Shown in pieces: positions 32,934-61,906 of a stretch of 64,000 nucleotides of DNA (position 1 is its first letter; every line of letters begins with the position of its first letter). The stretch is taken from positions 15,916-79,915 of the forward strand of contig CAYLJX010000004.1 in NCBI GenBank assembly GCA_964384235.1, given 5' to 3'. Position numbers and translations under genes: made by a program. The notes beneath the pieces were generated by a model, which had not been told where the DNA came from, ran no database searches, and saw only the letters and a program-made list of their open reading frames with translations. The stretch is from an uncultured Bdellovibrionales bacterium (GTDB lineage Bacteria > Patescibacteriota > Minisyncoccia > Moranbacterales > UBA1568).

Positions 32934-35735
32934 CTACAAGTATTTCGAAGTAAAGCTCTTCTTGCAAGATTTCAGTTTGTTCGGCGGACCGGCGAAGATG
33001 AGCTCGCCGCCTTTTTCACCACCCTCGGGACCGAGTTCCAGAACCCAGTCCGCCGAGCGGATGACATCGGTGTTGTGCTCCACCACAAGGACGGTATTGC
33101 CTTTATCGACGAGCGCTTCGAGCACTTCGAGCAGTCGCCGCACGTCCTCGAAGTGCAGCCCGATGGTCGGTTCGTCGAGGATGTAGAGCGTCTTGCCGGT
33201 CGATTTGCGAGCAAGCTCGGTGGCAAGCTTGATACGCTGCGCCTCACCGCCGGAGAGGTTGGTCGCACTCTGACCGAGGACGAGGTAACCGAGGCCAACT
33301 TCTTCGAGCACGCGGAGTTTCTCCTCGATCATCGGCTGATCAAGGAAAAAGCGTCTCGCCTCCGTCACGGTCATGCGCAGGATCTGGGCGATGTTCATCC
33401 CGCGGTACTCGATGGAGAGCGTCTTCATGTTGTAACGCGTCCCCTGACAGACCTCGCACGGGATATAGACGTCCGGTAGGAGGTACATCTCGATCTTTTT
33501 CAGTCCCCCACCCTGGCACGTCTCACAGCGTCCGCCGCGCATATTGAAGGAAAAGTGGCTGGCGGAATACTTTTCCCGTTCAGCCTCCGGCGTCGCGGCG
33601 AAGAGGTCGCGGATGAGCCCAAAGACCCCGGTGTAGGTGGCAGCGTTGGAGCGCGGCGTGCGACCGATCGGATCCTGCGTCACGGCGATCACCTTGTCGA
33701 TATGGTCGAGACCCGTGATCTTCTTGTGCGCGCCCGGCTCGGCCTTGGCATGATAGAAATGCTTGGAGAGCGCCCTCGAGAGGATGTCATGGACGAGGCT
33801 CGACTTGCCGGAGCCGGAGACTCCGGAGACCGCGACGAGCATCCCGAGAGGGATCTTAGCATCGACGTTTCGGAGGTTATGCTCCGTCGCGCCGACGATC
33901 TCAATGGACTTGCCGGATCCTTTGCGGACTTTTTTCTTGGAAGAGACGCTTCGCTTACCGGAGAGGTACTGGCCGGTCAGGAGTTTGGAACGCATGAGCT
34001 TTTCCGGCGTCCCTTCGAAGATGACCTCGCCGCCCTCGCTCCCCGCACCGGGACCCATGTCGATGATATAGTCCGCTCGGCGCATGATGGCGACATCGTG
34101 CTCCACGACGACGAGGGAGTTGTTGGCCGAGCGCAGTTCCTCGAGTGCATTGATGAGCTTCTCCGTATCGCGGCTATGCAGCCCCACCGACGGTTCGTCC
34201 AGGACATAGATGATGCCGGAGAGTCCCGACTTCATCTGGACCGAGAGACGGATACGCTGCGCCTCGCCGCCGGAAAGGGTGTCAGCTCCGCGGGAAAGTT
34301 CGAGATAACCGAGACCCACCTTTTCCACCGAACGCACACGCATCTCCATCTCACGGAAGAGCGGATCGACGATGTCTTTCTCCCCGACTTTGAGAAGCGC
34401 CTCGCGCAGGGGTTTCAGTTCCGTGAGAAATTTCTCGACACTCCGGTCGACGATCTCGTTCATGGAGAGGCCGTTCACCTTGACCGACAACGATTCGGGC
34501 TTGAGCCGCTTGCCCTGGCAGTCCGGGCACGTCTTGGAAAGCATGTAGGTCTCGATCTCGGCGCGCAGATGGTCGGATTTGGTATCGCGGTATTTCTGCT
34601 CGAGGATCGGGATGACGCCGGGAAAAACATTTTCTTTCCCTCCCTCCTCTCCGAAGAGGACGAGCTTCATCTGCTTCGCGGACAGTTTCTTAACCGGGAT
34701 GTCGAGGGAAAATTTAGATTTCTTGGCGAGCTCACGAAGGAGCAACATCGGACCGCTCTGGGCGTGCCGATCACCGTTCATTTTGCTCCAGGGACGGATG
34801 GCACCTTCGGAAAACGAGAGGTTCTTGTTGGGGATGACGAGCTCCGGATCGAATTCCAGTGTCCGCCCGAGACCCGAACACTTTGGACAGGCCCCTTCGG
34901 GAGAGTTAAAGGAAAAATGACTCGGGGTGAACTCGGGCAGATGCACGTCGCACTCCTCGCAGCGGTACTCCTCGTTGTAGACGCGTTCCTCACCAGAACC
35001 GTTGATGCGAAGCGTGAGCGTCCCCTGTCCGACACGAAAAGCAGTCTGCAGGGAATCCAGGATGCGCTCCTTGTCCGGACGGACGGCGGAGAGCGCCATG
35101 CGATCGATGACGATACCGATGGTCGAGATATCCGAAGGAGAGGCTTCCGCAATAGCCTCGGCGATGGGGCGGATCTCGCCATGGAAGAGCACCCGAACAT
35201 ACCCCCACCCGTCGATCTGTGAGAGCACTTCTTTCTCCGTCTTTTCCACGAGGAGCGGACTGTAGGCCAAAAACGCGAGCGGCGTCTCATCGGGCAGAAG
35301 CAGGATCTCGTCGAGGATTTCCCGCACGCTCTTGCGTGAGAGCGTCTTGCCACACTGAGGACAATGTGGGACACCAAGCTTGGCGAAGAGGATACGCAGG
35401 TAGTCGTAGACCTCGGTCATGGTGCCGACCGTCGAGCGCGGAGAGCGCGACACGCTCTTCTGATCGATGGAGATGGCCGGCGAGAGGTTGTGAATGGCGT
35501 CCACGTCCGGCTTGTCGAAGCCTTCCATGAAGTTTCTCGCGTACGAGGAGAGCGATTCGACATAACGGCGGTTGGCCTCTGCAAAGAGCGTATCGAAGGC
35601 GAGCGATGACTTGCCCGAACCGGAGAGTCCCGTGATGACGACAAGCGAATCACGCGGGATATCGACCGAAACGTTCTTGAGATTATTGACACGCGCTCCC
35701 CGGACTTCGATCACCGACTTCTTGTTGTTTGGCAT
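32934..35735 (-). CDS. uvrA: excinuclease ABC subunit A (canonical, with insertion domain)
   Basis: 933 aa. Two ABC modules ([19 protein letters not shown]), zinc-finger cysteine pairs, and about 100 aa of insertion-domain region between CPKCSGLG and CPDCQGKRL. Confidence 0.9.
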
Positions 35736-35757
35736 ACCACCTTTATGCGCTAAAAAA

Positions 35758-35774
35758 GAGAAACATTGTTTCTC
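35758..35774. promoter_or_regulatory. perfect palindrome GAGAAACA-T-TGTTTCTC, 23 nt upstream of the uvrA start codon
   Basis: 8-bp arms with a 1-nt centre. Preceded by an A-run, and followed on the minus strand by a U-tract. Candidate operator or attenuator between uvrC and uvrA. Confidence 0.4.
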
Positions 35775-35828: not shown

Positions 35829-37166
35829 CTACCGCAGGAATTCCTTACCGCGACGGCGGCGATGAAAGACGATGGCAAAACGGTGGGCTTCGCCGTTCGC
35901 GAGGAGGATGTCTTTTTTGAAACGCTTGACGAGCGACTGGTCGCCGACGAAACTTTTCGGCTGGTGTCGCTCGTCCTTGACGACACCGAGCACGGGAATG
36001 GTGAGGTGCACTTGTCGCAGGACCGAGAGCGCGACGCTCCGCTGCAGTTCCCCTCCGTCTACCACTATCATATCCGGAAGCGACCATTCGGTATGCCCGA
36101 GACGCCGCGTGAGGATTTCCCTGAGAGCCGTGAGGTCGTTTCCTTGGTGATCGCCTCGCAGACGGAATTGCCGATATTCGTCCTTGTCCGGTCGACTCCC
36201 CTCCACTACTGTCATGACCCCGACGCTCGCCACTCCCTGGAGATGTGCCACGTCATACGCCTCAATCCGAATTCTTGATTCTTGATTCTCAATTCTTGAT
36301 TCTTCCTTGATGAGCGCTATATCCTGGATATGTTGCAACCCGTAGAGGGTGTTGCGAAGCTCGGCCGCCCGTTCGAATTCCATCGCCTTCGCCGCCGCCT
36401 TCATTTCCCGCTCGAGACCCTTCACGAGTTTCTGCTTGTGCCCCTCGAAGAAGAGTCGGATATGCTGGATGGTCCGGCCGTACTCCCGTACGCTCACCTC
36501 TCCCGTACACACCCCGGGACACAGTCCGATCTGCCTGTTGAAACACGGGCGCACGCCTGTGTCCCGGACTCGATCCGGGACCCTCCCGTTACCACGAGAT
36601 CCCGAATCGCGCTTCGCTTGTCCGGGATGCTTCGCCGTTCTTTCGAACGGCTCGCATTTGTCCCTATACGGAAACAGTTTTCGCACGATCTTCATCGCCT
36701 CTTTCAGTCCCAGTCCCGAGAGGAACGGACCGAACATGTATTTCACTTTCGCGTCGAACTTCCCCTGCTCGATGTCTCGGCCGCGAACGATGAGCACCCG
36801 CGGGAACGGCTCGTCCGTGATGACGACATGGTTGTAGCTCTTGTCGTCCTTGGCGTCGGTGTTGTAGGGCGGCTGATGCTCCTTGATGAGACGCGATTCG
36901 AGGATGAGCGCCTCAAGGACCGAATCGGTCTGCCGGTAGGCGATGTACGAGACCTTGGGCAGCATGAGCGCGATCTTGGGGCCTCTCGTCTCCATCAGGT
37001 CGCTTGCGAAATAGCTCCGCACCCGGTCGCGCAAGGACGTCGCCTTGCCGATATAGAGGAGCGTTTTGGTCTCATCCAGGAAGAAGTACACCCCTGGATG
37101 CTCCGGCAGGGCGTTCTTCTTCTGAAACGACAGAAGCGTATGCGATTTTTCCCACAGTGTAGCCAT
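35829..37166 (-). CDS. uvrC: excinuclease ABC subunit C (short form, no C-terminal HhH pair evident)
   Basis: GIY-YIG motif (GVYFFLDE...[13 protein letters not shown]), UvrBC-interaction region and endonuclease domain. The start is placed at ATG 37166 (MATLWEK...). The ORF track's 24-aa extension would overlap the divergent gene. Confidence 0.8.
36271..36305. repeat. tandem heptamer array (ATTCTTG)x5 embedded in frame in uvrC coding sequence
   Basis: attcttg attcttg attctca attcttg attcttc on the plus strand encodes ...[16 protein letters not shown]... in UvrC. It is the same unit family as the 10541-10640 intergenic element. Confidence 0.5.
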
Positions 37167-37214
37167 AAATCGTGTCAGTACTATTGACTTCCAAGATAAA
37201 AAGGAGTATAATGT

Positions 37215-37583
37215 ATGAAAGTTAATTTTACAACTCACTCACAAAGAAGGAGGTTGGTTGTGGGAAACAATGTCAACACTTACGACATGATGGCGAACGA
37301 AGTGTACACCGTCATGAAGTCACCGAAGGAATTTGATCTACAACTCTACCGGGGAGCATTCGCCACCGTGGCACATAGGCACGGGATATGGCATCATCAA
37401 TACGCTCCGACGTACAACCGCTATTTCAAGCAAGTGATGGACCGGGTAAAGAACCTCATCCAAAATCCTCGCGGACTACAACCGGTGACACCCTCCGCTA
37501 CTCTCACACCTCCCCCGACACATGTCTACCACCGGCAATATGTCGATAACAAGATGCTTGCCGCCGGCGACTACGACGACTGA
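37215..37583 (+). CDS. hypothetical protein
   Basis: 122 aa. AAAAGGAG RBS sits 8 nt upstream of the ATG. A clean intrinsic terminator lies downstream. An alternative GTG start lies at about 37259 after AAGGAGG. Confidence 0.5.
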   Translation: MKVNFTTHSQRRRLVVGNNVNTYDMMANEVYTVMKSPKEFDLQLYRGAFATVAHRHGIWHHQYAPTYNRYFKQVMDRVKNLIQNPRGLQPVTPSATLTPPPTHVYHRQYVDNKMLAAGDYDD

Positions 37584-37621
37584 CCTCCCCTCGCGCAACA
37601 CCACCTCCCTGCGAGGGATTC

Positions 37622-37663
37622 ACGGATACCAAGGACCACGTGCCATGGTATCCGTCTTTTTTT
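37622..37663 (+). terminator. rho-independent terminator
   Basis: 10-bp stem acggatacca / tggtatccgt (37622-37631 and 37646-37655) followed by ttttttt. Confidence 0.6.
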
Positions 37664-37734
37664 ATTGAATTTTTTCAAAAAGAAATCGGGTCGGGAACAT
37701 TCGCTCCCGACCCTTGTTTCATACCTACGCCGTT

Positions 37735-38175
37735 TCACAGTTTTTCCTTCGGGATTCCCTCAAACACCCTCCTTGCCTCCCCGTTTCCGTCGGAAAGTTT
37801 CGTCTTGGATCCCTTGAAGGAAAAATCCGTTCGCTCGACCGCCTTATAACCGATATGCCGGCTGAACACCGTGAATGCGATTCGCATATCCGCGTTGCTC
37901 CACATGAACCTGTACAGATCGGGTATCAGATCATGCCGTATCTGCCACACATCATGAGGCATTCCTTCTCCGTCGCACACCTCGAGCAGGTCTTCGTCCG
38001 CCAGGCCGTGTTCCGCAAGCCAGACCGCCGCATGGACACTGACCGGGACATCGTTGATTTCGATAAACCATTCACATCTTTCCGGCATCGGCAGCTGCTG
38101 CCGAAGCCAGGCTTCCCCGAACAACCGACTCATCATTATGCTCCTTCTTGTTGGAAAAAATGTTAAACAACCCAA
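37735..38175 (-). CDS. hypothetical protein
   Basis: 146 aa. GGAG RBS sits 8 nt upstream of the ATG at 38175. No recognisable motif. Confidence 0.5.
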   Translation of the reverse strand: MGCLTFFPTRRSIMMSRLFGEAWLRQQLPMPERCEWFIEINDVPVSVHAAVWLAEHGLADEDLLEVCDGEGMPHDVWQIRHDLIPDLYRFMWSNADMRIAFTVFSRHIGYKAVERTDFSFKGSKTKLSDGNGEARRVFEGIPKEKL

Positions 38176-38199
38176 GACACAAGCCTACTCCGAATATAC

Positions 38200-38240
38200 A
38201 TGAAAAAACAAGAGGGTGCACCCCCTCTGATCTTTTTCTC
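38200..38240 (-). terminator. bidirectional-looking intrinsic terminator (used on minus strand after the PEBP gene)
   Basis: Stem AGAGGG/CCCTCT (38211-38216 and 38223-38228). Flanked by an A-run on the left and a T-run on the right. Confidence 0.6.
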
Positions 38241-38242
38241 TG

Positions 38243-38707
38243 TCATCTCTTCCGGTCGTAGCGACCCATCAGTTCCGCGAGACCGATGACATGCCCCTCC
38301 ATCGCCTGTTCCAGATCGATCTCGATCGCCGTCTCCGGGAGCGCGAGCGTCGTATCCAAGGCGTAGAGCTTGAAGAAATACCGATGCTCCCGATCGGGCG
38401 GACAGGGGCCACCGTACTTGGTCACGCCCGCAGTGGTCGTCCCCTGCACGGCTCCCGGCGGTACGGAATCCTCATCGATACCGGCGATTTCCGGATCGAT
38501 GTTCCACATCACCCAGTGTACCCAGAGTCCGTCTTCCCGGACGCTTCTCGGCACATCCGGATCGTCCACGAGGAGGACCAGGCTCTGCGCCGCTTCCGGT
38601 ACGCCGGCTATGACAAGCGGCGGGCTGATATCTTCCCCGTCACAGGTGTACCGTGCCGGAATCACCCCGCCCGATTCGAACGCCGGACTGGTAAGCTTGA
38701 GAGACAT
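38243..38707 (-). CDS. YbhB/YbcL-family phosphatidylethanolamine-binding protein (PEBP/Raf kinase inhibitor-like)
   Basis: MSLKLTSPAFESGGVIPARYTCDGEDISPPL..., DDPDVP and GPCPPDREHRYFFKLYALD. The start is placed at ATG 38707; the ORF track start at 38743 is a TTG codon. Confidence 0.8.
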   Translation of the reverse strand: MSLKLTSPAFESGGVIPARYTCDGEDISPPLVIAGVPEAAQSLVLLVDDPDVPRSVREDGLWVHWVMWNIDPEIAGIDEDSVPPGAVQGTTTAGVTKYGGPCPPDREHRYFFKLYALDTTLALPETAIEIDLEQAMEGHVIGLAELMGRYDRKR

Positions 38708-38761
38708 ACGCGTGCGAAAAAAATCTGGCACGCTGTAATACAACGCAAACTCCCCGGCTTT

Positions 38762-39154
38762 TCAGTGGAGCACCTCGCGGACCAGTCCGGCCACCTTGTC
38801 CGGGGTCGTGAGCGACTTGATGGCGTAGAAACGCGTCTCGAACTTCCCGACTTCCTTGAAAATCGCTTCGTCGTCGACGTTGCTCAGGACGATGACGGGA
38901 ATTCGCGAAAGCTCAGGATCCTGTTTGAGCTCCGCGAGCACATCCAGCCCGTTCTTGACCGGCATCTGGATATCCAAAAGGATGACTTCGGGCCGCGTCT
39001 CACGGACCACTCTCATTCCGACCTCCCCGTTTTCGGCGGTCGAGACCTCAAAGCCCTCCAGACTCAGTTTCATCCGGTAGATTTCCCGGATATCGTCGTC
39101 ATCGTCGATGACGCATACCTTTCTTCTTTCCCACGGACTTTCGTTTCCTGTCAT
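38762..39154 (-). CDS. stand-alone response-regulator receiver (CheY-like REC) domain protein
   Basis: KVCVIDDDDDIREIY...ILLDIQMPVKNGLDVL...IVLSN...K. The start is placed at ATG 39154. The upstream 48 codons in the ORF track are AT-rich and unlikely to be coding. Confidence 0.7.
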   Translation of the reverse strand: MTGNESPWERRKVCVIDDDDDIREIYRMKLSLEGFEVSTAENGEVGMRVVRETRPEVILLDIQMPVKNGLDVLAELKQDPELSRIPVIVLSNVDDEAIFKEVGKFETRFYAIKSLTTPDKVAGLVREVLH

Positions 39155-39330
39155 AGGCTCGATTTGTATGTTATGCCTTTCAATAGTATCATACTGATGA
39201 AAGCCTTCAGAACGGAGAGTGATGAGCCTCGCAAGAGACTCTAATTGAAACCCACCTTGATTTTCAGGGAAAAAATGTAATTTTTTTCCGTTACTCATTT
39301 TTACGGGATTCAGCCGCTTTCCTGCATTGA

Positions 39331-39435
39331 CCCCGTTACATTGTCCTCGTTTCTCTAGAAGACGTCCTCTGTAACGGGGACGGGCTTTTTTATTATGACC
39401 AAAGCTACCTGGGTCATCGAGGAATGTAACCGGGG
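39331..39435. repeat. three copies of TGTAACGGGG-type motif: ccccgttaca 39331-39340 (inverted), tgtaacgggg 39370-39379, tgtaaccgggg 39425-39435, each direct copy followed by GGGC-T-run
   Basis: Read directly from the sequence. The first two form a 10-bp stem with a 29-nt loop. Possible structured RNA or protein-binding site in the 380-bp leader region of the REC-PEBP genes. Confidence 0.35.
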
Positions 39436-39475
39436 TTGAGGGCTTTTTGTATTTTCATGACTGATGGTCCGAGGC

Positions 39476-39520
39476 CAAGAAAAAACATTCCCCCTCATCG
39501 CAGACCGCGAAGGGGGGAAA
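39476..39520 (-). terminator. rho-independent terminator (minus strand) after gene 39537-40043
   Basis: Stem ttccccc / gggggaa (39488-39494 and 39513-39519). On the minus strand it is followed by UGUUUUUUCUU. Confidence 0.55.
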
Positions 39521-39536
39521 TACATCGAAAGATACT

Positions 39537-40043
39537 TCAGGGAGGAAGGTGTTCTTCATCGCAGCCGACGTGTGTCATCGCCATCCTGACCGGCCGATAG
39601 ATACCGTAACGGAGTAAAAAATCCCGCTGTACCTTGTAGGCCTCACGTTCCAGATCGATGATCTTACCGCAACCCACGACCGCTCCGTCACTTGCTGCCA
39701 ATCCATCCCGACCGACACACTGCTTTCCGGAACTGCATTGCAGATAGTGCGTCATCTCATGGACTACGGCCGACGCTGGAAAGGTCTCGAAGTAGTCGAT
39801 CTCCTCGAGCAGATACACCTCCCGGCCGCCGCGATACCACCCGTACACCCTGCATTCCTTTCCGTTGCAGGCGTTCTGCACGAAGAACTCGTGCGGGACA
39901 AATACCACTTGCGGCAGCTCATCGGGTTTTGAGTACCCCGAAAGCGTCACAGCCCATGACAACAGGACTACGAACAGGTCTTCCACGGCAATACTCCTTC
40001 CAAAGAAAAAGAACCGGAAAAATATCTTTATGCGATACGGCAC
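39537..40043 (-). CDS. hypothetical protein with HExxH motif (putative zinc metallopeptidase-like), likely secreted
   Basis: 168 aa with a GTG start. Hydrophobic N-terminus. VVHEMTHYLQ and several cysteines are present. Confidence 0.45.
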   Translation of the reverse strand: MPYRIKIFFRFFFFGRSIAVEDLFVVLLSWAVTLSGYSKPDELPQVVFVPHEFFVQNACNGKECRVYGWYRGGREVYLLEEIDYFETFPASAVVHEMTHYLQCSSGKQCVGRDGLAASDGAVVGCGKIIDLEREAYKVQRDFLLRYGIYRPVRMAMTHVGCDEEHLPP

Positions 40044-40123
40044 GGGATTCCCCGTACCATCTCCTCTGCCAACACTCTATCGCCAAGCGACCTTTTCGTC
40101 AAAGAGAACGGGCTTGGGAGATA

Positions 40124-40735
40124 TCAGGTCTTACTCTTTCCGATCTGGGGTTTGCGGAGGACGAAGAAAGCGACAGTAGCAACGATCGCTCCGAGCGTGT
40201 CGGCGAGCATGTCTTTCTGCGCGTCCCAGACGTCGCCCTGGCTCCCGAGGTAGGCTGCGCCGGCCGCCGGATCGTTCATGATGGCAAAGATCCACTCGAC
40301 GAGCTCGTAGCCCATGGCCACCGTCGCGATGACAAAGACCGGGTAAGTAAACAAAAGAAAACGGTTCGCCACCAGACGTTTGGCGAGCAGCCACTCGGCG
40401 ATGGCAAAGGCGTAAAACCCGACCGTGAAGTGTGCCATACGGTCGTAATGGTTGCGCTCGAAGCCGAAGAAGTCCGTCACATAGTCGAACGGTACCAGGG
40501 CGAACGTCCAGTGCCCGCCGATGGTGTGGAGATAGACGAGGACGAACATAAGCGCGTAGGCCGTCCGACTGAAGCGGATCCCCGACACGTAGAGTCCGAG
40601 AATGGCCGCGAGAATAATCCATACCGTGAGATTTTCCGCGAACCACGTCGCCCGATCGACCGGATCGATGGCCAGAACAAGAAACAATACCGCATATATC
40701 ACAAGCAGCACAAACAAAAATTTGTTTTTGAACAT
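40124..40735 (-). CDS. DUF2238-like multi-pass membrane protein
   Basis: 203 aa with about 6 TM helices. The pattern resembles the YjdF/DUF2238 family. Confidence 0.5.
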   Translation of the reverse strand: MFKNKFLFVLLVIYAVLFLVLAIDPVDRATWFAENLTVWIILAAILGLYVSGIRFSRTAYALMFVLVYLHTIGGHWTFALVPFDYVTDFFGFERNHYDRMAHFTVGFYAFAIAEWLLAKRLVANRFLLFTYPVFVIATVAMGYELVEWIFAIMNDPAAGAAYLGSQGDVWDAQKDMLADTLGAIVATVAFFVLRKPQIGKSKT

Positions 40736-40799
40736 AGCGTTTGAATATTCAAAAAAGAACCGTCTCCTCGGCCCCTTATGGACATTATACCCGATTTCG

Positions 40800-41261
40800 T
40801 CACTCCTCGAACAGCTTCAGATATTCGCCGTAGCCTTCGCGTTCGAGGTCCTCTTTGGGGATGAACCGGAGCGCGGCGGAGTTCATGCAATAGCGCTTGC
40901 CGCCTTGTTCCGGCGGACCGTCATCAAACACGTGCCCCAGATGCGAGTCCGCGACGGCCGAACGTACTTCCGTCCGCGTCGAAAAGAGCCGGTCGTCCTC
41001 ATGCAGGGTCACGCTCTCCGGACGGATCGGTTGCGTAAACGACGGCCACCCCGTACCGGAGTCATACTTGTCCCGCGACGAATAGAGCGGCTCGCCTGAG
41101 ACGACATCGACATAGAGGCCCTCGGCATGATTGTCGGCATATTCGTTCGTAAACGGCGGCTCCGTCCCCTCCTCTTGCGTCACCTCATACTGCAAGGGCG
41201 TGAGCTCCGCTTCCAGCTCGGTTTCTGAGGGTTTAATAAATTTTTTCCAATCCTTTTTCAT
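40800..41261 (-). CDS. msrB: peptide-methionine (R)-S-oxide reductase
   Basis: GTGWPSF, HLGHVF and RYCMNS motifs are present. It is the form lacking the zinc-binding CxxC pairs. Confidence 0.85.
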
Positions 41262-41279
41262 AACGACCTGATTATATCC

Positions 41280-42002
41280 CTAAAAATCCCACCCCGTCTT
41301 GGGGACCTCGAAAACAAGAAAGGTCGCGTCGGAAAGCGCTTGGATCGAGACAGTTTCAGATTTCTCTATGCCGATGGCATCGCGATCAGAAAGCGTCTCA
41401 CCTTCGATCTCGACACTACCGGAAACGACGAGGATATAGAGACCGTTTTGAGGGACATGTACCGTATAATCCAACGACTGCCCTTCCTCGAGAGCGCCAC
41501 GAGAGACAAACGCATCCTGATGGATCATGAGCGACCCCTCCCGACCGTCAGGCGATACCAGGAGCTCGAGCGTATTCTTGTTCCATGTTGTCCCGAACGA
41601 TTTCTGATCGTACCGTGGCACGATGTTTCGTTCGCGCGGGAGGATCCATATCTGGAACAACTTGAGTGTGGCGTCTTTGGAGCGATTGTATTCGGCATGC
41701 GTCACGCCGGTCCCGGCCGACATGACCTGTACATCCCCGGCCGGCACGGCATACCGGTTACCCATACTGTCCTCATGCGTCACCGCCCCTTCCATCACGA
41801 GGGTGATGATTTCCATGTTGTCATGCTGGTGCGGACCAAAACCCGAATCCGGCGCGATCGTATCATCGTTTATCACCCGAAGCGTCCCGAAACCCATCCG
41901 TTCCGGATCATACCAGTGAGCGAAGCTGAAACTGAACCGCGTAGACAACCATCCGTGTTCTCCTCTGCCTCTCTCCTTCGCCCTATGAACGATGTATGAC
42001 AT
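41280..42002 (-). CDS. pirin-family bicupin protein
   Basis: N-terminal cupin with the HQHDNMEIITLVMEG metal motif, followed by a second cupin. Confidence 0.85.
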   Translation of the reverse strand: MSYIVHRAKERGRGEHGWLSTRFSFSFAHWYDPERMGFGTLRVINDDTIAPDSGFGPHQHDNMEIITLVMEGAVTHEDSMGNRYAVPAGDVQVMSAGTGVTHAEYNRSKDATLKLFQIWILPRERNIVPRYDQKSFGTTWNKNTLELLVSPDGREGSLMIHQDAFVSRGALEEGQSLDYTVHVPQNGLYILVVSGSVEIEGETLSDRDAIGIEKSETVSIQALSDATFLVFEVPKTGWDF

Positions 42003-42035
42003 ATCTCTCCTCTTTTCCTTGCTCCTTTCTACAAG

Positions 42036-42470
42036 TTACTTATCGCTCGTCTCCATATGTTCCCCTCTCTCCACTGCGGCGGGATCCATCCAAAAGTATT
42101 CCCAGATGTGACCGTCGAGGTCGCGAAGGGCCCGACCGTACATGAAGCCCATGTCCTGCGTCTCGCGTGCCTCCGTCCCGCCGGCCGCCAACCCTTTCTC
42201 GACGATCGCGTCCACCGCTTCCTTGCTCTCACATGAGAGCGCGGTCAGCACCTCCGTCACCTTGGACGTGTCGGCGATGTCGGTACCGCGCAAGAAACTC
42301 TTGAAGAACGGCTCCGTGAGAAGCATCGCGTAGATATCCTCGCCGATCACCATGCAGGTCGCCTTGTCATCAGTGAACTGCGGGTTGAACGAATAGCCCA
42401 GGCTTCCGAAAAACGCTTTCGTCTTTTCCAGATCTTTCACCGGCAGATTCACGAATATCTTCGTGGTCAT
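42036..42470 (-). CDS. VOC-family (glyoxalase/bleomycin-resistance fold) protein
   Basis: 144 aa with a paired beta-alpha-beta-beta-beta pattern and conserved E/H positions. Confidence 0.7.
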   Translation of the reverse strand: MTTKIFVNLPVKDLEKTKAFFGSLGYSFNPQFTDDKATCMVIGEDIYAMLLTEPFFKSFLRGTDIADTSKVTEVLTALSCESKEAVDAIVEKGLAAGGTEARETQDMGFMYGRALRDLDGHIWEYFWMDPAAVERGEHMETSDK

Positions 42471-42640
42471 ATGACTTTATCATCCCGAACTTACCTGTCC
42501 GCCCCAGGAGGAATCCGGGAACCTTTATGAAATTACACACGTACTACATTACGATACAACAAATCATTTCAGGAAAGAAATCAGGGAAGACGGTAGTGTC
42601 TTCCCTTGAGTATGGAGCGTGGCTCCCTGTCGTATTGTCA

Positions 42641-46968: not shown

Positions 46969-46973
46969 AGCAG

Positions 46974-51825: not shown

Positions 51826-51857
51826 GATTCCCGCCTTCGCGGGAATGACATTTTTTA
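51826..51857 (+). terminator. rho-independent terminator
   Basis: Stem attcccgc / gcgggaat (51827-51834 and 51839-51846), loop cttc, then gacatttttt. Confidence 0.65.
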
Positions 51858-51863
51858 GGACAC

Positions 51864-52469
51864 ATGACCAAAGACAACAATCCACAATCCGAGGTGAAGC
51901 CTCTCCTTGAAAGAGTGGCGCTCGGGGCACCGAAATATGTCGGGTCGCCTGTTTCGCTCGTCCTCCACACGATCTTCTTCGTGGGGATTTTCGGCTTGCA
52001 GTTCGTCGGCTTCGGCTTCGACCAGATCATGCTCATCCTCACCACGGTCGTCTCGCTCGAGGCCATCTACCTCTCCATCTTCATCCAGATGACGGTCAAC
52101 CACCAGGCCAAGCAGATCGAGGAAGTGAGCGAGGACGTCGAGGAGATCAGCGAGGACGTGGAAGGCATCTCTGAGGACGTCGAGGAAATTTCCAAGGACA
52201 TTGATGACATCCAGGAGGACGTGGAGGACATTTCGGAAGACGTGGAAGAGATTTCCAAGGACATTGATGACATCCAGGAGGACGTCAAGGAAATCGGTGA
52301 GGACGTGGAGGAAATATCGGAAGACGTGGAAGATATCGGCGAGGAAATCGAAAAGGATGACAAGGAGTATACCGCCGACCGCACGCAGGACGTCCAAAAG
52401 ATCCAAAAAATCGAGGGCGTCCTCGAAGAGCTTCTGAAAGAGATCAGGGAGATGAAGGTACGCAAGTAG
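51864..52469 (+). CDS. DUF1003-family membrane protein with C-terminal acidic heptad-repeat tail
   Basis: The N-terminal two-TM core with LILTTVVSLEAIYLSIFIQMTVNHQ matches the DUF1003 pattern. The C-terminus carries (SEDVEEI)-type 7-aa repeats x11. Confidence 0.65.
   Translation: MTKDNNPQSEVKPLLERVALGAPKYVGSPVSLVLHTIFFVGIFGLQFVGFGFDQIMLILTTVVSLEAIYLSIFIQMTVNHQAKQIEEVSEDVEEISEDVEGISEDVEEISKDIDDIQEDVEDISEDVEEISKDIDDIQEDVKEIGEDVEEISEDVEDIGEEIEKDDKEYTADRTQDVQKIQKIEGVLEELLKEIREMKVRK
52118..52355. repeat. 21-bp (7-codon) tandem repeat x11 with a 63-bp higher-order duplication, inside gene 51864-52469
   Basis: EEVSEDV EEISEDV EGISEDV EEISKDI DDIQEDV ... The 35-nt string atttccaaggacattgatgacatccaggaggacgt occurs at both 52187-52221 and 52250-52284. 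Confidence 0.75.
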
Positions 52470-52486
52470 TCAAAAATATCTGTGTA

Positions 52487-52528
52487 AAAAAATCTCCGTG
52501 GAGAGAACGATCCTCTCCACGGATTTTC
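52487..52528. terminator. bidirectional intrinsic terminator between convergent genes
   Basis: Perfect 11-bp stem tccgtggagag / ctctccacgga (52495-52505 and 52513-52523). A-run on the left, T-run on the right. Confidence 0.6.
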
Positions 52529-52546
52529 ATTGCCTGACTGTGTGGT

Positions 52547-53638
52547 TCAGGGAGACGAGGACTGCACCACGAACTCACGCGTATCGTGATCGAAGCGAAG
52601 TTTCTTCTTCCTGTCCTCGAACGGCATATCCCACTTGTACAGCCGACCCCGTTCATCGGCGGCACGGATGATTTCCCGCATCCGCCATGGCCGCAGGAGC
52701 GCGACCGTCCCGATAGCGATGCCGCTCGCCCCGGCATGCCAGAGCTCCGCTACGTTGGCGGCATCCTGGATGCCGTTGCCGGCGATGATGGGGATCCTGA
52801 TACCGGCCTCGCGTGCCTCCCTCGCCTTTTCGCGGGTGAGGTGAAAGCACATCGGCCCGGAGAGACCTCCTTTCTTGGTAGACGTGACAGGATCCTCGTC
52901 GAAACGCCTCGGCAATGCCGAGAGGCCCCCTTGTTCCAGATAGCCCCAGTCGATCTCCGGCGTCGAACCCCACGGAATCGCGTTCGCGATCCAGAAGGCG
53001 TCCGCCAGATGTTCGACCGTCGTCAGGACTTTCACCGGAACCAGCGCATTGAGATTGACGATGAGCGGGATGCCGAGGTACCGAAGCGCTTGCAGCACTG
53101 CGCCTATCATGCCGTAAAGCGTGGCAGGATCGATGCCGGTGTTGGGACAGGCGAAGTTCACATGAAGCGCCACCGGTCCCTTGAAATGTCCGAGATGCGG
53201 TTGGAACCGCCGGACAAATTCCTCCGCCTGGAGAACCATATCCGATGAAAAATCTCCCTTGGGCATAAAGGAAAGCATGATCGGATCGGTCCGCCGCTGC
53301 CATACCCCCTTCTTGAGAAGCGCGTCCATACCGGGATTGGTCAACCCTACCGTGTTTACGATGTGGCCGCTCTTGGGATACGCCTTGATACTCCTCGGGA
53401 GCCACTCCTTAGGATGAAGGTCCGGCCGTAACGGGGTGTTGCCGACGTTTGGCTCGAGCGTCATGGTCTTGGCCACGAAACTGCAGCCGCCCCACGTATA
53501 TCCGAGAAACAACTTCCAGAGCCACGAGTACCAGTACTCATTCTCGCAGAAAAACCCACGGGCTCCGGGAGCGTTGAATGCGTATCCGAATTCCACGTCG
53601 ACGCCCGCATATCTTCCACTTCTTGGTTTCAGTTTCAC
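52547..53638 (-). CDS. dihydroorotate-dehydrogenase-like TIM-barrel flavoprotein (divergent, with N-terminal extension)
   Basis: NTVGLTNPG, FACPNTG, and the C-terminal IIAGNGIQDAANVAELWHAGASGIAIGT FMN-binding pattern. Confidence 0.55.
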   Translation of the reverse strand: MKLKPRSGRYAGVDVEFGYAFNAPGARGFFCENEYWYSWLWKLFLGYTWGGCSFVAKTMTLEPNVGNTPLRPDLHPKEWLPRSIKAYPKSGHIVNTVGLTNPGMDALLKKGVWQRRTDPIMLSFMPKGDFSSDMVLQAEEFVRRFQPHLGHFKGPVALHVNFACPNTGIDPATLYGMIGAVLQALRYLGIPLIVNLNALVPVKVLTTVEHLADAFWIANAIPWGSTPEIDWGYLEQGGLSALPRRFDEDPVTSTKKGGLSGPMCFHLTREKAREAREAGIRIPIIAGNGIQDAANVAELWHAGASGIAIGTVALLRPWRMREIIRAADERGRLYKWDMPFEDRKKKLRFDHDTREFVVQSSSP

Positions 53639-53732
53639 TGCCTGCTCCTTTCTCTTCAGGTTGTCGAGGAACTACGCCAAAACGAACGTTCTCGTTTCGA
53701 CGCAGTGTAGTACGGAAGCCGAAAAGCGTCAA

Positions 53733-53780
53733 CACAAAAAAGACGAAAGCGGGCCGTGATGTTCTACGAGCCCGCTTTTG
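53733..53780 (-). terminator. rho-independent terminator (minus strand) ending the ogt-ydjC-uvrA2-small-gene transcription unit
   Basis: Stem agcgggc / gcccgct (53748-53754 and 53770-53776). On the minus strand it is followed by UUUCGUCUUUUUUGUG. Confidence 0.55.
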
Positions 53781-53792
53781 CTACCAACTGGA

Positions 53793-54140
53793 TCAGGAAG
53801 ATAGGAAGCGTCGTTCCTTGGTATAAAGTCGTCCCTCCAACGTATCCCGCTGGAAAACGATATAGAACTCGTGTTTGCATCTGTCTCCCCTGAAACGATA
53901 GGTGACCCTTGCCAAGTACACACCCGGATGTGTTTCCGGTTTGATGGGAAACCTCCCGAAGGATATTTCCCTTCTTGCTTCCGGATCAGTCCGGCCGTAA
54001 TGATATTCCAGAACGATGGCGAGTATCTTTTCACGGAGAATTCTCTCGCACGTTTTCCTGCAGGAAGAACTCTTCTTCCGAAACTCCACTTTCTCTTCCG
54101 GAGTAAAGGAAATTCTCACGCCAGCAATTTCACGTTGCAC
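53793..54140 (-). CDS. hypothetical small protein (GTG start) downstream of uvrA paralog
   Basis: Strong RBS GGAAGGAGG sits 6 nt upstream of the GTG at 54138-54140. 115 aa. No motif was recognised. Confidence 0.5.
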   Translation of the reverse strand: MQREIAGVRISFTPEEKVEFRKKSSSCRKTCERILREKILAIVLEYHYGRTDPEARREISFGRFPIKPETHPGVYLARVTYRFRGDRCKHEFYIVFQRDTLEGRLYTKERRFLSS

Positions 54141-54202
54141 GATAGACCTCCTTCCTTGTCGCGTTGTTCAAGAACCGCCCCCAACCTATTAGTCCCCAGT
54201 CT

Positions 54203-56797
54203 CTACCCTCTTTTCCCTGTTGTCAACACCTTCTTGAGATACATACCGGTATACGAGCCGGTTTTGCGGGCGACTTCCTCGGGCGTGCCATGGGCGACGA
54301 GCTTGCCGCCGCCCGATCCGCCTTCCGGTCCGATATCGATGACATAGTCGGCGCTCTTGATGAGATCCATGTTGTGCTCAATGACGAGGACGGTATTACC
54401 CTTCACCACGAGACGTTCGAGGATCTCGATCAGTTTCTTGACATCCTCGTAGTGGAGCCCGATGGTCGGCTCATCGAGGAGATAGATGGTGCGCTCGATG
54501 TGCTGGCGGTAGAGCTCGCTCGCGATTTTCACGCGCTGCGCTTCGCCGCCGGAGAGCGTGGTCGCGGATTGGCCGAGCTTGAGATAACCGAGACCCACTT
54601 CGTTGAGCGTCTTCAGCCGGTCGGCGATGGCCGGGATGTCATGGAAGAACGCGTAGGATTCCTCGATGGTCATCTCGAGCACCTCGTAGACGTTCTTGTG
54701 CTTGTACTTGACCTCGAGGGTTTCCTTGGTGAAGCGCTTGCCATCGCAGACGTCGCACGTCACGTAGACCGTCGGGAGAAAGTGCATCTCGACGGCGATG
54801 AAGCCGTTCCCCTCGCACGTCTCGCAACGCCCGCCGGGACGATTGAAGGAAAAGCGGCCGGCGCGCCACCCCCTGACCCGCGCCTCTTCCGTCGAGGCGA
54901 AGAGGTCGCGCACGTGCGTCCACGCGCCGGTGTAGGTGGCCGGATTGGAGCGAGGCGTCCGACCGATCGGACTCTGATCGATGAGGACCGCGCGGGAGAG
55001 GTACTCGCTCCCGGTGAACGTCTTGCAATGGAAGGTCTTGTTGGATTTGTAGCGGCGGTCGAAACGGGTCTGGAGGTTCTTGTGGATGATCTCGTAGAGA
55101 AGGGTCGACTTGCCCGAGCCGGACACGCCCGTGATGACGTTGAAGCGTCCGAGTGGGATGTCGACGTTCATGTTCTTGATATTGAAGAGCTCTCCGCCGC
55201 GGACCTTGAGCTCGCCCTTTTCCTTGGTCCGGCGGGTCGCCGGGACAGGCACGCGCGTCTCGTCACGCAGGTATGAGAGCGTGAGCGACCCCGATTTGTT
55301 CTTGGGCGCGGTGAGGAGCTCATCGAGAAAACCGGAAACCACGACGCTTCCGCCATGGACGCCGGCACCGGGTCCGATATCGACGATGTAGTCCGAGGCG
55401 AAGATCGTGTCCTCGTCATGCTCCACCACGATGATGGTGTTGCCGAGGCTCCGCAGGGCCTGGAGCGTCTCGATGAGCCGCTCGTTGTCACGTTGGTGCA
55501 GACCGATGGTCGGTTCGTCGAGGACGTAGAGCGCGCCCACGAGCTGGGAGCCGAGCTGCGAAGCGAGCCGGATACGCTGGGCCTCGCCGCCGGAGAGTGT
55601 GTTGGCCCGACGATCGAGGGTGAGATAGTTGAGGCCGACATTGAGGAGAAACTGCAGCCGCGAGCCGATCTCACGGAGGACCACCGCGGCGATCTCACGC
55701 TCACGCTCGGTGAGATCGAGTCCGTCGAAAAAATTCCTCGCGTCTTCGGTGGTGAGCTTGGTCAGTTCGACAATGTTTCGTTTGCCGACGAGGACGTGGA
55801 GCGCTTCCTCGCGCAGACGCGTCCCGTGACAGACCTCACACGGCTCGTCGCCGAAAAAGTGCTTGGTCCCGAGACCGTTGCAGGCCTCACAAGCACCATA
55901 GGGAGAGTTGAAGGAGAAAAGGCGCGGCTCGACCTCCGGATAGGAGAAGCCGTCATAAGGACAGGCGAACTTGGCCGAGAGGACGAACGGATCCGCACCA
56001 AGATGGATTTTCACGAGACCTTCGCTCTCCTCGATAGCGCGCTCCACCGCTTCGGAGAGACGCTCGCCGGACGTCTCGGGAAACTTCTCGAATTCGATGA
56101 GCGGCACCTCGTCGACGATGAGGTCGATGTCATGCTTCTTGTTCTTGGAGAGGATGACCTGTTCGCGCAGGCTCTTGCGCTCGCCGTCGAGGAAGATTTC
56201 CGAGAAACCTTTGCTCAGGGCATTGTAGAGGAGCTGATAGTACTCCCCTTTGCGGCCGCGCACCACCGGTGCCGTGATGATGAGCGAATCGTTTTTTTTC
56301 TTCGGCGAAACAAGAGCTTTCTTCATCCGTTCGCGCACGATCTCGAGCATCTCCTCGGTGGAGAGCTTTTGGATCTCGCGGTTGCAGACGAGACAGTGCG
56401 GCCGGCCCAACCGTGCGAAGAGCACGCGCAGGTAGTCATAGATCTCCGTCACGGTAGCGACCGTCGACCGAGGGTTCCTGCTCGCGGACTTCTGGTCGAT
56501 GGAGATGGCCGGTGAGAGACCGACGATCTCGTCCACGTCCGGCTTCTGCATGGTATTGAGGAATTGCCTGGCATACGCAGAAAGCGACTCGACGTAGCGG
56601 CGCTGCCCCTCGGCGAAGATCGTATCGAAGGCCAGGGAGGACTTGCCGGAACCAGAAAGACCGGTGAAGACGACCATCTTGTTCCGTGGCATCTCGACGG
56701 TGATGTTCTTGAGATTGTGAGTGCGCGCGCCCTTCACGACGATCCACTCAGAGGGTTCGTGTTTCATTGGGGTCATGTTTTTCGATGATTTGGACAT
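54203..56797 (-). CDS. uvrA: excinuclease ABC subunit A paralog lacking the insertion-domain segment
   Basis: 864 aa with both ABC modules and zinc-finger cysteines. After CEACNGLG...CEVCHGTRL the sequence continues directly into the signature region. The paralog at 32934-35735 has about 100 extra residues at this position. The N-terminal start is uncertain (56797, 56776 or 56767). Confidence 0.85.
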
Positions 56798-56858
56798 ACA
56801 AAAAAAGAAGCTATTGGTCCGTCAGTATACCCCGAAGCGAGGAAAGAATCAATGTTCG

Positions 56859-57871: not shown

Positions 57872-58018
57872 TTCAATATACGTAATACAACAGTATCATA
57901 CGGTTTTTCCGTTTGTACATAATTTCTAACGACCGCGACAAATTATGTACAGGCTTCAAGAAACAAAAAACAAAAGAGGACTCCCTCTGAAGGAAGTCCT
58001 CTTTGAAGACCTGGCTTG

Positions 58019-59761: not shown

Positions 59762-59866
59762 AACCGAACCAGAGGAGGAGACATCATGACCCCTCAACCC
59801 CAATACAGTAAGGCCCGAGTCCGCCAAAGAGCAGACCGGGCCTTTTTCTTCATCCTTCAAAATTTT

Positions 59867-61906
59867 TCAACCCCGTTTGCGGTGCGAACGTTTGCCGCCG
59901 AGACTTTCCTCCAGTGCGCGGATCTCATCGCGCAGGATAGCGGCCGTCTCGAAATCGAGCACTTTGACCGCCGCCTGCATCTCCTTTTCCTTCAGACGGA
60001 TGAGTTTCTGCGGATCCTTAGCAAAGATCTCCTGGTCCAGGACGACATTGGCACGAACCGCCTTGTCATGCTCGCTCTCGAGATGCTCGGTGATATCGTG
60101 GATGTTCTTCTTGATCGTCTGCGGCGTGATGCCGTGTTCTTGGTTGTATGCCATCTGAAGCGCCCGACGACGATTGGTCTCGTCGAGGGCATAGCGCATC
60201 GATCCGGTGACCGAATCGGCATAGAGTGTCACCCGTCCGGCGACGTTTCGCGCGGCGCGGCCGATGATCTGGATGAGTGACGTCTCGGAACGGAGAAACC
60301 CTTCCTTGTCCGCGTCGAGGATCCCGATGAAGGACACTTCCGGCAGGTCCAGTCCCTCGCGCAAGAGATTGACGCCGACGAGACAGTCGAATTCGCCCTT
60401 GCGGAAGGCGGTGAGGATCTTGATCCGTTCGATCGTCTTGATATCGCTGTGGAGGTACTCGGCTTTGAGATGTTTTTCCTTAAGATAGGTGCTCAGGTCT
60501 TCGGCCATCTTCTTGGTGAGCGTCGTCGCAATGACACGACCACCCTTTTGTATTTCCCGTTCTGCTTCCGCGATGAAGTCCTGGATCTGACCAGGATACA
60601 CTCCCTGTTCACGGATGGGGCGTACCACGACCTCCGGATCGAGGAGTCCCGTCGGACGGATGACTTGTTCGACGATCCGTGTGCTCGTTTCACGCTCCTC
60701 TTGTGAAGGCGTCGCCGAAGTGAAAACTATCTGTCCCACCCGCTCGACGAATTCCTCATAGCGGAGCGGCCGGTTGTCGAGAGCGCTCGGCAGGCGGAAT
60801 CCGTACTCGACAAGCGTCTTCTTGCGCGACTGATCGCCGGCATACATGCCCCGAAGCTGCGGCAGCGTCACGTGCGACTCGTCGATGACCGTGAGAAAAT
60901 CCGGCCGACCGTCGCTCGTGTGCGGGAAGTAGGAGAGAAGCGTCTCGGGAGGATCGCCCTGGTTCTTTCCGGAGAGGTGACGGGAATAGTTTTCGATACC
61001 GTTGCAGTAGCCGATCTCCTGGATCATGGCGAGGTCATAGTTGGTGCGACGCTTGAGGCGCTCGACTTCGAGGATCTTGCCTTCGGCTTCCAGAACCTTG
61101 AGCCGTTCGTCGAGCTCGAGACGGATCGATAGGATGGCGCGTTCCTGCTCGGCCTTGTCCGTGATGAAGTGCTTGGCCGGGAAGAGAAAGACGTTCTCGA
61201 GCGTGCCAAGGATCTTCTGTGAGACAGGATCGATCTTGGTGATCATCCCCAACTTTCCACCGACGATCTCGAGGAGGTAGATGAACTTCTCCGAGACCGG
61301 CATGATCTCGATACGGTTGCCGAGACTGCGGAACTGACCAGGACTGAGATCCGCATTGGTGCGCTCGAAGAAAATGGAGACAAGCTTGTGCAGGAGTTCA
61401 GTGCGCGAGCACGCCATCCCGACCTCGAGGTGAAGGTTTTCCTTCTTGTATTCCTCCGGGCTCCCCAATCCGTAGATGCACGACACCGACGCGACGATAA
61501 TGACATCCTGACGCGTGAGCAGGGACTGCGTGGAGGCGTGCCGCAACCGGTCGATCTCCTCGTTGATGGCGGCGTCCTTCTCGATGTAAGTATCGGTCAC
61601 GGGGAGATAGGCTTCCGGCTGGTAGTAGTCGTAGTAGGAGACGAAGTAGTGCACGGCATGATCGGGAAAGAATTCCTGGTACTCCTGGGCGAGCTGGGCG
61701 GCGAGCGTCTTGTTGTGAGCGATGACGAGGGTCGGTTTACCGACGGCCACGATGACATTGGCCATGGTGAACGTCTTGCCGGAGCCAGTGACACCGAGAA
61801 GTGTCTGACGCGGCTCGCCTTTCTTCAGGCCGTCGACGAGCGACGCGATCGCCTGAGGCTGATCACCAGAAGGACTGAACTTGTTGTGAAGATTAAACAC
61901 GGACAT
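59867..61906 (-). CDS. uvrB: excinuclease ABC subunit B
   Basis: 679 aa. GDQPQAI, Walker A GVTGSGKTFT, the helicase motifs and the C-terminal UVR domain are present. Confidence 0.9.
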   Translation of the reverse strand: MSVFNLHNKFSPSGDQPQAIASLVDGLKKGEPRQTLLGVTGSGKTFTMANVIVAVGKPTLVIAHNKTLAAQLAQEYQEFFPDHAVHYFVSYYDYYQPEAYLPVTDTYIEKDAAINEEIDRLRHASTQSLLTRQDVIIVASVSCIYGLGSPEEYKKENLHLEVGMACSRTELLHKLVSIFFERTNADLSPGQFRSLGNRIEIMPVSEKFIYLLEIVGGKLGMITKIDPVSQKILGTLENVFLFPAKHFITDKAEQERAILSIRLELDERLKVLEAEGKILEVERLKRRTNYDLAMIQEIGYCNGIENYSRHLSGKNQGDPPETLLSYFPHTSDGRPDFLTVIDESHVTLPQLRGMYAGDQSRKKTLVEYGFRLPSALDNRPLRYEEFVERVGQIVFTSATPSQEERETSTRIVEQVIRPTGLLDPEVVVRPIREQGVYPGQIQDFIAEAEREIQKGGRVIATTLTKKMAEDLSTYLKEKHLKAEYLHSDIKTIERIKILTAFRKGEFDCLVGVNLLREGLDLPEVSFIGILDADKEGFLRSETSLIQIIGRAARNVAGRVTLYADSVTGSMRYALDETNRRRALQMAYNQEHGITPQTIKKNIHDITEHLESEHDKAVRANVVLDQEIFAKDPQKLIRLKEKEMQAAVKVLDFETAAILRDEIRALEESLGGKRSHRKRG

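Follow-up and report, generated by a model that had tools for sequence, protein, structure and literature searches.

The window analysed here, a stretch of 64,000 nucleotides from contig CAYLJX010000004.1 (positions 15,916 to 79,915; assembly GCA_964384235.1), appears from its gene content to carry a complete nucleotide excision repair (NER) set, with two intact uvrA genes, of a member of the Moranbacteria (Patescibacteria). The genes all lie on the minus strand (−), in the order uvrB (59867..61906, 679 amino acids (aa), identified with the NCBIfam UvrB equivalog model and Pfam), a uvrA gene without the insertion domain (54203..56797, 864 aa), uvrC (35829..37238, likely start Met25, ~445 aa, identified with Pfam and TIGR00194) and a uvrA paralog that contains the insertion domain (32934..35735, 933 aa). 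We call the ID-containing paralog copy 1 and the ID-less gene copy 2, where ID stands for the insertion domain (Pfam UvrA_DNA-bind, PF17755); UBD denotes the UvrB-binding domain (Pfam UvrA_inter, PF17760). Both uvrA open reading frames (ORFs) are present exactly where an initial annotation of the sequence had placed them. Copy 1 was assigned from Pfam, equivalog models and its alignment to Geobacillus UvrA, and copy 2 from Pfam, equivalog models, structure alignment and an AlphaFold2 model. The two are separate genes 18.5 kb apart, their products are 46% identical, and the nearest relatives of both alike are annotated as Candidatus Moranbacteria or Moraniibacteriota (Patescibacteria).

Copy 2 lacks the insertion domain

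The initial annotation held that copy 2 had lost the ID segment and kept the region bound by UvrB, and proposed that this be checked against structurally characterised UvrA. Copy 2 aligns to Geobacillus UvrA (2r6f) in two pieces, chain residues 21–303 and then 417–957, and a Pfam search found no PF17755 match in it, so that about 113 residues are gone. Placed on E. coli UvrA, the gap covers approximately residues 285–399, between the ligands C277/C280 and C406/C409 of zinc module 2 (Zn2), and the missing segment is thus indeed the insertion domain. In its place, Zn2 of copy 2 (residues 303–327; 55817..55891, −) holds a 9-residue loop of fixed spacing and conserved motif. The Zn2 spacing is exactly 17 residues in all 80 ID-less loci that we surveyed (see below), and the motif C..CNGLG-T[KR]HFFG[DN][ED]P-C..C.G.R occurs at fixed length in 109/109 ID-less sequences. 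Here and below, residue counts use E. coli numbering and refer to 118 relatives of copy 1 and to these 109 ID-less sequences.

The UBD of copy 2 lies between the two halves of zinc module 1 (Zn1), at approximately residues 139–278 (55964..56383, −), with a Pfam UvrA_inter match at 167–265 (71.9 bits). The region is therefore retained as claimed, but at about 141 aa (C138 to C279) it is shorter than the ~165 aa first estimated. Residues R246 and E252 of copy 2 correspond to E. coli R216 and E222, and the signature-II DNA-contact segment (residues 630–649; 54851..54910, −) has all four of its arginines. The AlphaFold2 model of copy 2 has a mean pLDDT of 83.8 and a pTM of 0.76, with pLDDT values of 79–90 around the Zn2 loop. 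Its best structural match is 3uwx_A, the Geobacillus UvrA of the UvrA-UvrB complex (TM 0.87); other class I structures rank next, and class II proteins fit less well. The model thus indicates that copy 2 keeps the class I architecture, UBD included, apart from the ID.

Profile scores and motifs place both copies in class I. Copy 2 scores 1236.5 and copy 1 scores 1217 with NF001503 (cutoff 1147), and the corresponding TIGR00630 scores are 1174 and 1162 (cutoff 730), so that both exceed the curated UvrA equivalog cutoffs, as expected of class I proteins. Both also have the two ABC modules, Walker A lysines, LSGGE signatures and Walker B motifs of a class I ATPase; neither family has any exception at the Walker A lysines K37 and K646, at the Zn2 cysteines or at those of zinc module 3 (Zn3). 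Of the features that define class I, an ID between the Zn2 halves is present in copy 1 and missing from copy 2. The families also differ at the fourth Zn1 ligand (E. coli C256; copy 2 residues 277–286, 55940–55969, −), which is Asp in 109/109 ID-less sequences and Cys in all copy 1 relatives. Variation at the ligands seems to be tolerated, because E. coli UvrA itself has a His at position 123. The same C256D substitution was seen in an ID-containing UvrA of the Blackburnbacteria, and the Zn1 Asp may be a lineage marker for vertically inherited UvrA of the candidate phyla radiation (CPR).

ID-less UvrA in the uvr clusters of the Parcubacteria

The best 120 database clusters for copy 2 are all ID-less. 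For a survey of gene context, one genome per GTDB species was scanned with copy 2, which gave at least 587 relatives, and the best 80 loci (66–86% identical to copy 2) were used. These 80 species-representative loci, from Moran-, Lloyd-, Taylor-, Zambryski-, Nomura- and Campbellbacteria, Paceibacteria and Minisyncoccia, are ID-less without exception. With an identical deletion in the 120 clusters and at 80/80 loci, the simple sequencing or assembly gap against which the initial annotation had cautioned can be set aside. The shared junction and the conserved loop of fixed length instead argue for a single ancient deletion that has been under constraint since, and the sequences thus point to one event of ID loss in the lineage.

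The gene neighbourhood is equally consistent. In 55/80 of these Parcubacteria loci the gene immediately 5' of the ID-less uvrA is uvrB, in the same orientation, and in 56/80 the gene immediately 3' of it is uvrC, likewise in that orientation; the association with uvrB and uvrC by which class I is recognised, uvrB - ID-less uvrA - uvrC, is therefore seen at 55–56 of 80 loci. Because it is flanked by uvrB and uvrC on one strand, the ID-less protein is the UvrA of the core uvrBAC cluster of the Parcubacteria/Paceibacteria radiation, and its distribution indicates that the whole radiation inherited this form of UvrA from its ancestor. Only four loci (L003, L006, L011 and L017), all of them from Moranbacteria, have an ID-containing uvrA no more than 10 kb from the ID-less gene, and in each it lies immediately 3' of uvrC. 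At the non-Moran loci the uvr cluster, together with 10 kb on either side, shows no uvrA other than the ID-less gene.

The window follows the Moranbacteria pattern. As had been noted, uvrC is adjacent to copy 1, at a distance of 93 bp from the end of uvrC, and uvrB is about 3 kb from copy 2, ending 3069 bp before it on the upstream side. Read against the surveyed loci, the adjacency of uvrC and copy 1 probably reflects an extra paralog placed behind uvrC, and it is no evidence that copy 1 was the original uvrC partner.

A more distant standalone ID-less UvrA (P0350, 845 aa, from a JGI metagenome) is 59% identical to copy 2 and has the same 17-residue Zn2 spacing and Zn1 Cys-to-Asp change. On this evidence, the ID-less lineage may reach beyond the 80 loci surveyed. 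Among the loci L004, L007, L008, L012–L014, L016, L018, L072 and L019–L080, we also observed ID-less uvrA genes 77–84% identical to the Moranbacteria gene in several public bins titled 'uncultured Bdellovibrionales'. Many Parcubacteria-like bins are titled 'uncultured Candidatus Saccharibacteria', and two proteins are named 'Undibacterium sp.'; such titles are probably taxonomic mislabels of metagenome bins.

Divergence of the ID-containing paralog

Copy 1 has the domain organisation of a textbook UvrA. Its alignment to Geobacillus UvrA runs over the full length (query 9–933 to 2r6f chain 24–952), and Pfam places UvrA_inter at 136–243 and UvrA_DNA-bind at 296–395. The ID itself spans residues 291–402 (34530..34865, −; PF17755, 79.6 bits). 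The segment that the initial annotation had described between the motifs CPKCSGLG and CPDCQGKRL is thus present, at a measured length of about 112 residues (motif starts at 283 and 403) instead of the ~100 given there. The consensus ID of the copy 1 family shares 40% identity with that of E. coli UvrA, and conservation of the ID inside the family is 74%.

The residues that contact DNA tell a different story. R712, R722, R724 and R730 are the set that has been mutated jointly to abolish DNA binding by UvrA. In the ID-less family they are almost fully kept (R712 and R730 in 109/109, R722 in 105/109, R724 in 103/109). The copy 1 family keeps R712 in 118/118, but R722 is replaced by E in 82/118, R724 by E in 98/118 and R730 by H or Y in 110/118, and in copy 1 itself the signature-II DNA-contact segment (residues 709–728; 33552..33611, −) is degenerate, with R722, R724 and R730 all replaced. 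Over segment 708–736, the net charge is +0.15 in the copy 1 family and +2.86 in the ID-less family, compared with +3 in E. coli and about +2.1 to +2.6 in other UvrA units. The DNA-contact arginines characteristic of class I are thus found in copy 2 and not in copy 1. Two further positions separate the families. G502, whose change to D in E. coli is described as impairing the recognition of damage, is G in 109/109 ID-less sequences and K in 115/118 of the copy 1 family (copy 1 residues 499–507, VQMKSGLSG; 34215..34241, −), and S691 is S in 104/109 of the former and D in 112/118 of the latter. As for the predicted contacts to UvrB, PF17760 is found in both copies and R216 is R in 109/109 ID-less and 118/118 copy 1 family sequences. 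Of the 109 ID-less sequences, 78 have E and 27 have Q at E222, where the copy 1 family has Q, H or A, so that copy 2 keeps both the R and the E and copy 1 keeps R216 but has E222Q.

The distribution of copy 1 is narrow. Its ~118 full-length clusters are all ID-containing, and the named relatives among the matches listed are all Moranbacteria. When the deepest relative of copy 1 was used as query, the names among the best 120 matches listed were those of Moranbacteria alone, down to 62% identity, whereas the ID-less family at 66–72% identity already covers many lineages; more distant copy 1 members may exist outside the Moranbacteria. Between the same deep pairs of Moranbacteria genomes, identity is ~75% for the ID-less protein and 64–67% for copy 1, and identity to E. 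coli UvrA is 54.8% for copy 2 and 49.0% for copy 1. Taken together, the sequence comparisons indicate that copy 1 is a lineage-restricted, faster-evolving, derived paralog. The database label for both genes is 'excinuclease ABC subunit UvrA', a shared name that masks the fact that the canonical-looking gene is the divergent copy.

Phylogeny of the two copies

A neighbour-joining (NJ) tree was built from 219 UvrA units, with double-length proteins split into halves, over 750 columns and with 100 bootstraps. The Parcubacteria ID-less clade has a bootstrap of 100 and is nested among ordinary class I UvrAs, its neighbours being the standalone ID-less P0350, the ID-containing Blackburnbacteria protein P0375 and E. 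coli UvrA. The initial annotation had named a grouping of copy 2 with ordinary class I UvrA, explained by a simple gap, as an outcome that would speak against it; the grouping is found, but the simple gap as its explanation fails. The copy 1 clade also has a bootstrap of 100, on a long stem of 0.22. Copy 1 may have arisen by ancient duplication or by transfer, and the tree is compatible with either. The presence of C256D in the ID-less clade, P0350 and the Blackburnbacteria UvrA, and not in copy 1, gives a weak hint against a recent duplication.

Double-length UvrA proteins

A search of 1.84 billion representatives, from which the best 150 50%-identity cluster representatives were taken, was dominated by double-length fusions, whose scores sum. 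About 30 of the 150 representatives are ~1800-aa proteins in which an ID-containing unit is fused to an ID-less one that has a UBD-sized segment, and the named sources are Fibrobacterales, Planctomycetota and Kinetoplastibacterium (NF001885/PRK00635 type). Examples are P0242, P0257 and P0275 (set P0242–P0390); a few have the reversed order, and P0289 consists of two ID-less units. The two copies in our window score 631 and 609 with NF001885 (cutoff 3054) and are not single-polypeptide UvrAs of this type. Among the 21 double UvrAs from which both units were recovered, R730 is kept in 3/21 ID-containing halves and 15/21 ID-less halves, and R216 in 18/21 ID-containing halves and 5/21 ID-less halves.

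Other genes of the locus

The UvrB of the window scores 961 bits with the NCBIfam equivalog model (cutoff 743) and has the Pfam domains UvrB_inter (the UvrA-binding domain 2), Helicase_C, UvrB and UVR. The domains of UvrC are limited to GIY-YIG, UVR and UvrC_RNaseH_dom; it has no C-terminal (HhH)2 domain, and its TIGR00194 score of 290 is barely above the cutoff of 285. UvrC is about 600 aa long in model bacteria, and in 35 Parcubacteria loci the uvrC ORFs that follow the ID-less gene encode 360–489 aa. From these sequences, the NER machinery of the radiation seems to have been trimmed in two proteins, UvrA and UvrC.

The ID-less uvrA and uvrC are separated here by ~17 kb (37239–54202), as against ~1.4 kb in the four Moranbacteria loci with a nearby ID-containing uvrA (L003, L006, L011 and L017). 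The interval encodes MsrB (SelR), pirin, two glyoxalase/bleomycin-resistance-like proteins, an AhpC/TSA peroxiredoxin and a response regulator, along with DUF2238, DUF456, PEBP-family and LCAT-like proteins, and looks like an oxidative-stress gene block inserted in the uvr cluster. Its 1109-aa ORF (47713–51042, −), unusually large for a small CPR genome, has an LCAT-like (lipase/acyltransferase) domain at residues 305–575 and no Pfam match over the remainder. We considered this ORF as a candidate Mfd and rejected it, as it is LCAT-like instead. A sigma-70-like promoter match, TTGATT-17-TATACT (56824–56852, −), is located ~30 bp 5' of the start codon of copy 2, and a strong terminator-like hairpin (57973–58004, −) lies between uvrB and copy 2; together, these predicted signals suggest separate transcription of copy 2 and uvrB in this genome. 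On the 3' side of copy 1 are a gene for a type II secretion system (T2SS) protein F/PilC-like product (30619–31839, −) and one for a 476-aa protein with CarboxypepD_reg and prealbumin-like domains (29158–30588, −). The genes at 29158–31839 appear to be typical CPR pilus/surface machinery with no relation to the uvr genes.

Discussion

The roles implied by the initial annotation, with copy 1 as the canonical UvrA and copy 2 as the altered paralog, are reversed by the distribution of the two families, the uvrBAC synteny, the residue patterns and the divergence of copy 1. We consider it very probable, judging from these sequence features, that in the Parcubacteria damage is sensed and UvrB is loaded by the ID-less UvrA. 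The fuller explanation, in which the ID-less protein is the standard NER UvrA and copy 1 an accessory partner of it, plausibly a heterodimeric one, is the one that we favour on balance.

UvrA dimers hold DNA mainly by signature domain II and the Zn3 hairpin, and the IDs serve as added clamps. In the mechanism that we envisage, an ancient deletion would have swapped the ~113-aa ID for a fixed 9-residue loop closing Zn module 2. The ID-less protein would still dimerise and scan DNA through its signature-II/Zn3-hairpin groove, and it would bind UvrB via the retained UBD, so that lesions would be passed to UvrB and the short UvrC without an ID clamp. That the ID-less protein discriminates damage differently is plausible if it behaves like the E. 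coli UvrA engineered to lack residues 290–400. Copy 1, for its part, would bring an ID and intact ATPase sites minus the positive DNA-contact patch and G502. By pairing with the ID-less protein it might form a dimer with one ID and one intact DNA-binding half-groove, which could provide extra ID-dependent discrimination. Cryo-EM work reports that the two IDs of the UvrA homodimer divide the work between them, and a heterodimer of this kind would genetically fix the 'recognition-ID / support-ID' asymmetry of homodimers. Because the copy 1 half of the groove is de-charged and the gene is tightly linked to the uvr genes, a heterodimer is the most economical model. We nevertheless put it forward as a tentative possibility on the basis of sequence, one that has somewhat less than an even chance of being correct. 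Eighteen 'longest contig' lengths coincide between the copy 1 and copy 2 match lists, which suggests that the two genes share contigs in many genomes.

Other explanations of the gene pair have to be weighed against this reading. It is next to impossible that the ID deletion is a sequencing or assembly artefact or that copy 2 is a decaying pseudogene, since the same junction recurs in at least 109 sequences and in 80 species, and the ORF is intact, with all catalytic motifs kept and 66–86% identity across the lineage. Copy 1 could instead be the housekeeping class I UvrA, working with the uvrC next to it, with copy 2 as a side paralog that became specialised when ID loss changed its lesion discrimination. 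Copy 1 does have the full domain set, scores above the UvrA equivalog cutoffs and sits only 93 bp from uvrC, and engineered ID deletions lower damage discrimination. We nevertheless find this arrangement highly unlikely, because all 80 Parcubacteria species loci carry the ID-less form, flanked as described by uvrB and uvrC, because the named copy 1 relatives among the matches listed are from Moranbacteria only, and because copy 1 is the copy that is farther from E. coli UvrA and has lost R722, R724, R730 and G502. The two copies might also divide the work by pathway, the ID-less UvrA being recruited by Mfd or by stalled RNA polymerase for transcription-coupled repair, where no damage recognition by UvrA is needed, and the ID-containing copy in global repair. 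When residues 290–400 are deleted from E. coli UvrA, global NER on plasmids is defective and Mfd-dependent repair is relatively spared, and copy 2 retains the domain that binds Mfd and UvrB. However, a tblastn search with E. coli Mfd found no mfd in the window or in the 80 loci with their 10-kb flanks, matching only the UvrB homology module, and the 1109-aa ORF of the window is LCAT-like. Copy 1 is also without the DNA-binding arginines expected in a global sensor, and the non-Moran uvr clusters with their flanks show the ID-less uvrA alone, so that we give a split of this kind little credence.

The remaining alternative leaves all NER to the ID-less protein and makes copy 1 a homodimer with a function outside NER, for example in sensing or displacing a DNA adduct or DNA-bound molecule via its ID. 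UvrA2, DrrC and Ecm16 act independently, with the ID setting their substrate specificity, and the strong conservation of the copy 1 ID within its family and the intact ATPase motifs would suit such a role. Unlike class II proteins, however, copy 1 has a UBD with R216 invariant and is tightly linked to uvrC, and its de-charged signature-II segment would make strong DNA binding by a copy 1 homodimer improbable. We therefore judge a function outside NER to be unlikely.

Several observations weigh against our own interpretation, in which the ID-less protein is the standard UvrA and copy 1 its accessory partner. The locus survey covered uvr loci with 10-kb flanks rather than whole genomes, and an ID-containing UvrA may lie elsewhere in non-Moran Parcubacteria genomes, just as there may be Moranbacteria that do not have both copies. 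The deep nodes of the NJ tree lack resolution, and this includes the placement of the copy 1 clade. Copy 1 retains R723 and K725 beside the replaced arginines and through them may keep some residual contact with DNA. Known UvrA paralogs, those of class II, work alone, and we infer the heterodimer, like the biochemical activities of both copies, from the domain architecture, distribution, synteny and residue patterns that we observed. Finally, the support that the fused double UvrAs can lend is limited: R216 is lost in their ID-less halves and kept in copy 2, and their N-terminal halves form one clade (bootstrap 88), such that they may count as only one independent precedent.

At present the ID is given a central part in the clamping, unwinding and discrimination of damaged DNA by UvrA, and according to one 2025 study it is essential for coordinating the DNA. 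A UvrA that naturally lacks the ID and serves hundreds of species as their core sensor would provide a ready-made test of this necessity, with a bearing on how damage is discriminated without an ID in very small genomes. The boldest version of our proposal joins two claims: that the whole Parcubacteria/Paceibacteria radiation carries out NER with an ID-free UvrA, and that the Moranbacteria evolved a hard-wired asymmetric UvrA heterodimer, a solution reached independently by the fused double UvrAs. We regard this conjunction as rather doubtful. If it were true, the ID clamp, called essential in recent structures, would be dispensable in vivo, and in the Moranbacteria heterodimer the only ID, for 'recognition', would come from one protomer, and its partner would contribute an intact DNA groove and the UvrB contacts.

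How do the two copies compare with UvrA forms already known? Our search of the literature for natural ID-less UvrAs, for a definition of a 'class III' and for double UvrAs, which covered subscription journals in part, turned up engineered deletions only. A class I UvrA that naturally lacks the ID and probably serves a large CPR radiation as its core NER sensor thus appears to be undescribed, and an earlier mention may exist. The engineered proteins (E. coli UvrA deleted for 290–400 and Geobacillus UvrA minus the ID) lack almost the same segment as the gap at ~285–399 in copy 2, and like copy 2 they retain the UBD, the Zn2 ligands and both ATPase modules. Such proteins bind UvrB and support incision in vitro on short substrates, but they discriminate poorly against an excess of undamaged DNA, and deletion of the ID in E. 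coli UvrA cripples global repair. The difference is that they are laboratory constructs, whereas the form represented by copy 2 is natural and anciently fixed, with a conserved 9-residue loop.

Class II UvrAs (Deinococcus UvrA2, DrrC and Ecm16) resemble copy 2 in that one accessory domain of nucleotide-binding domain I (NBD-I) is gone and a second UvrA is found alongside. In class II, however, the UBD and Zn module 1 are absent and the ID, needed there for DNA binding, is kept, while in copy 2 the UBD is kept and the ID is gone, and the sequence and structural matches of copy 2 to class II are weaker than those to class I. We therefore rejected class II membership, as both copies have PF17760 and the Zn1 halves, and copy 2 is without the ID that class II retains.

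The double UvrAs resemble the two copies in their pairing of an ID-containing with an ID-less unit. They are one chain, and our two copies share the pairing only as a gene pair; nor do the double proteins have close kinship to either copy, their Zn2 linkers measuring 8–54 residues. As with copy 1 and copy 2, however, their ID-containing halves tend to lose R730 and their ID-less halves keep it, so that the pairing of an ID-containing protomer with a weakened signature-II patch and an ID-less protomer with an intact one appears, from the sequences, to recur elsewhere. The Moranbacteria pair and the fused double UvrAs together suggest that protomer asymmetry, which is only transient in homodimers, can be fixed genetically.

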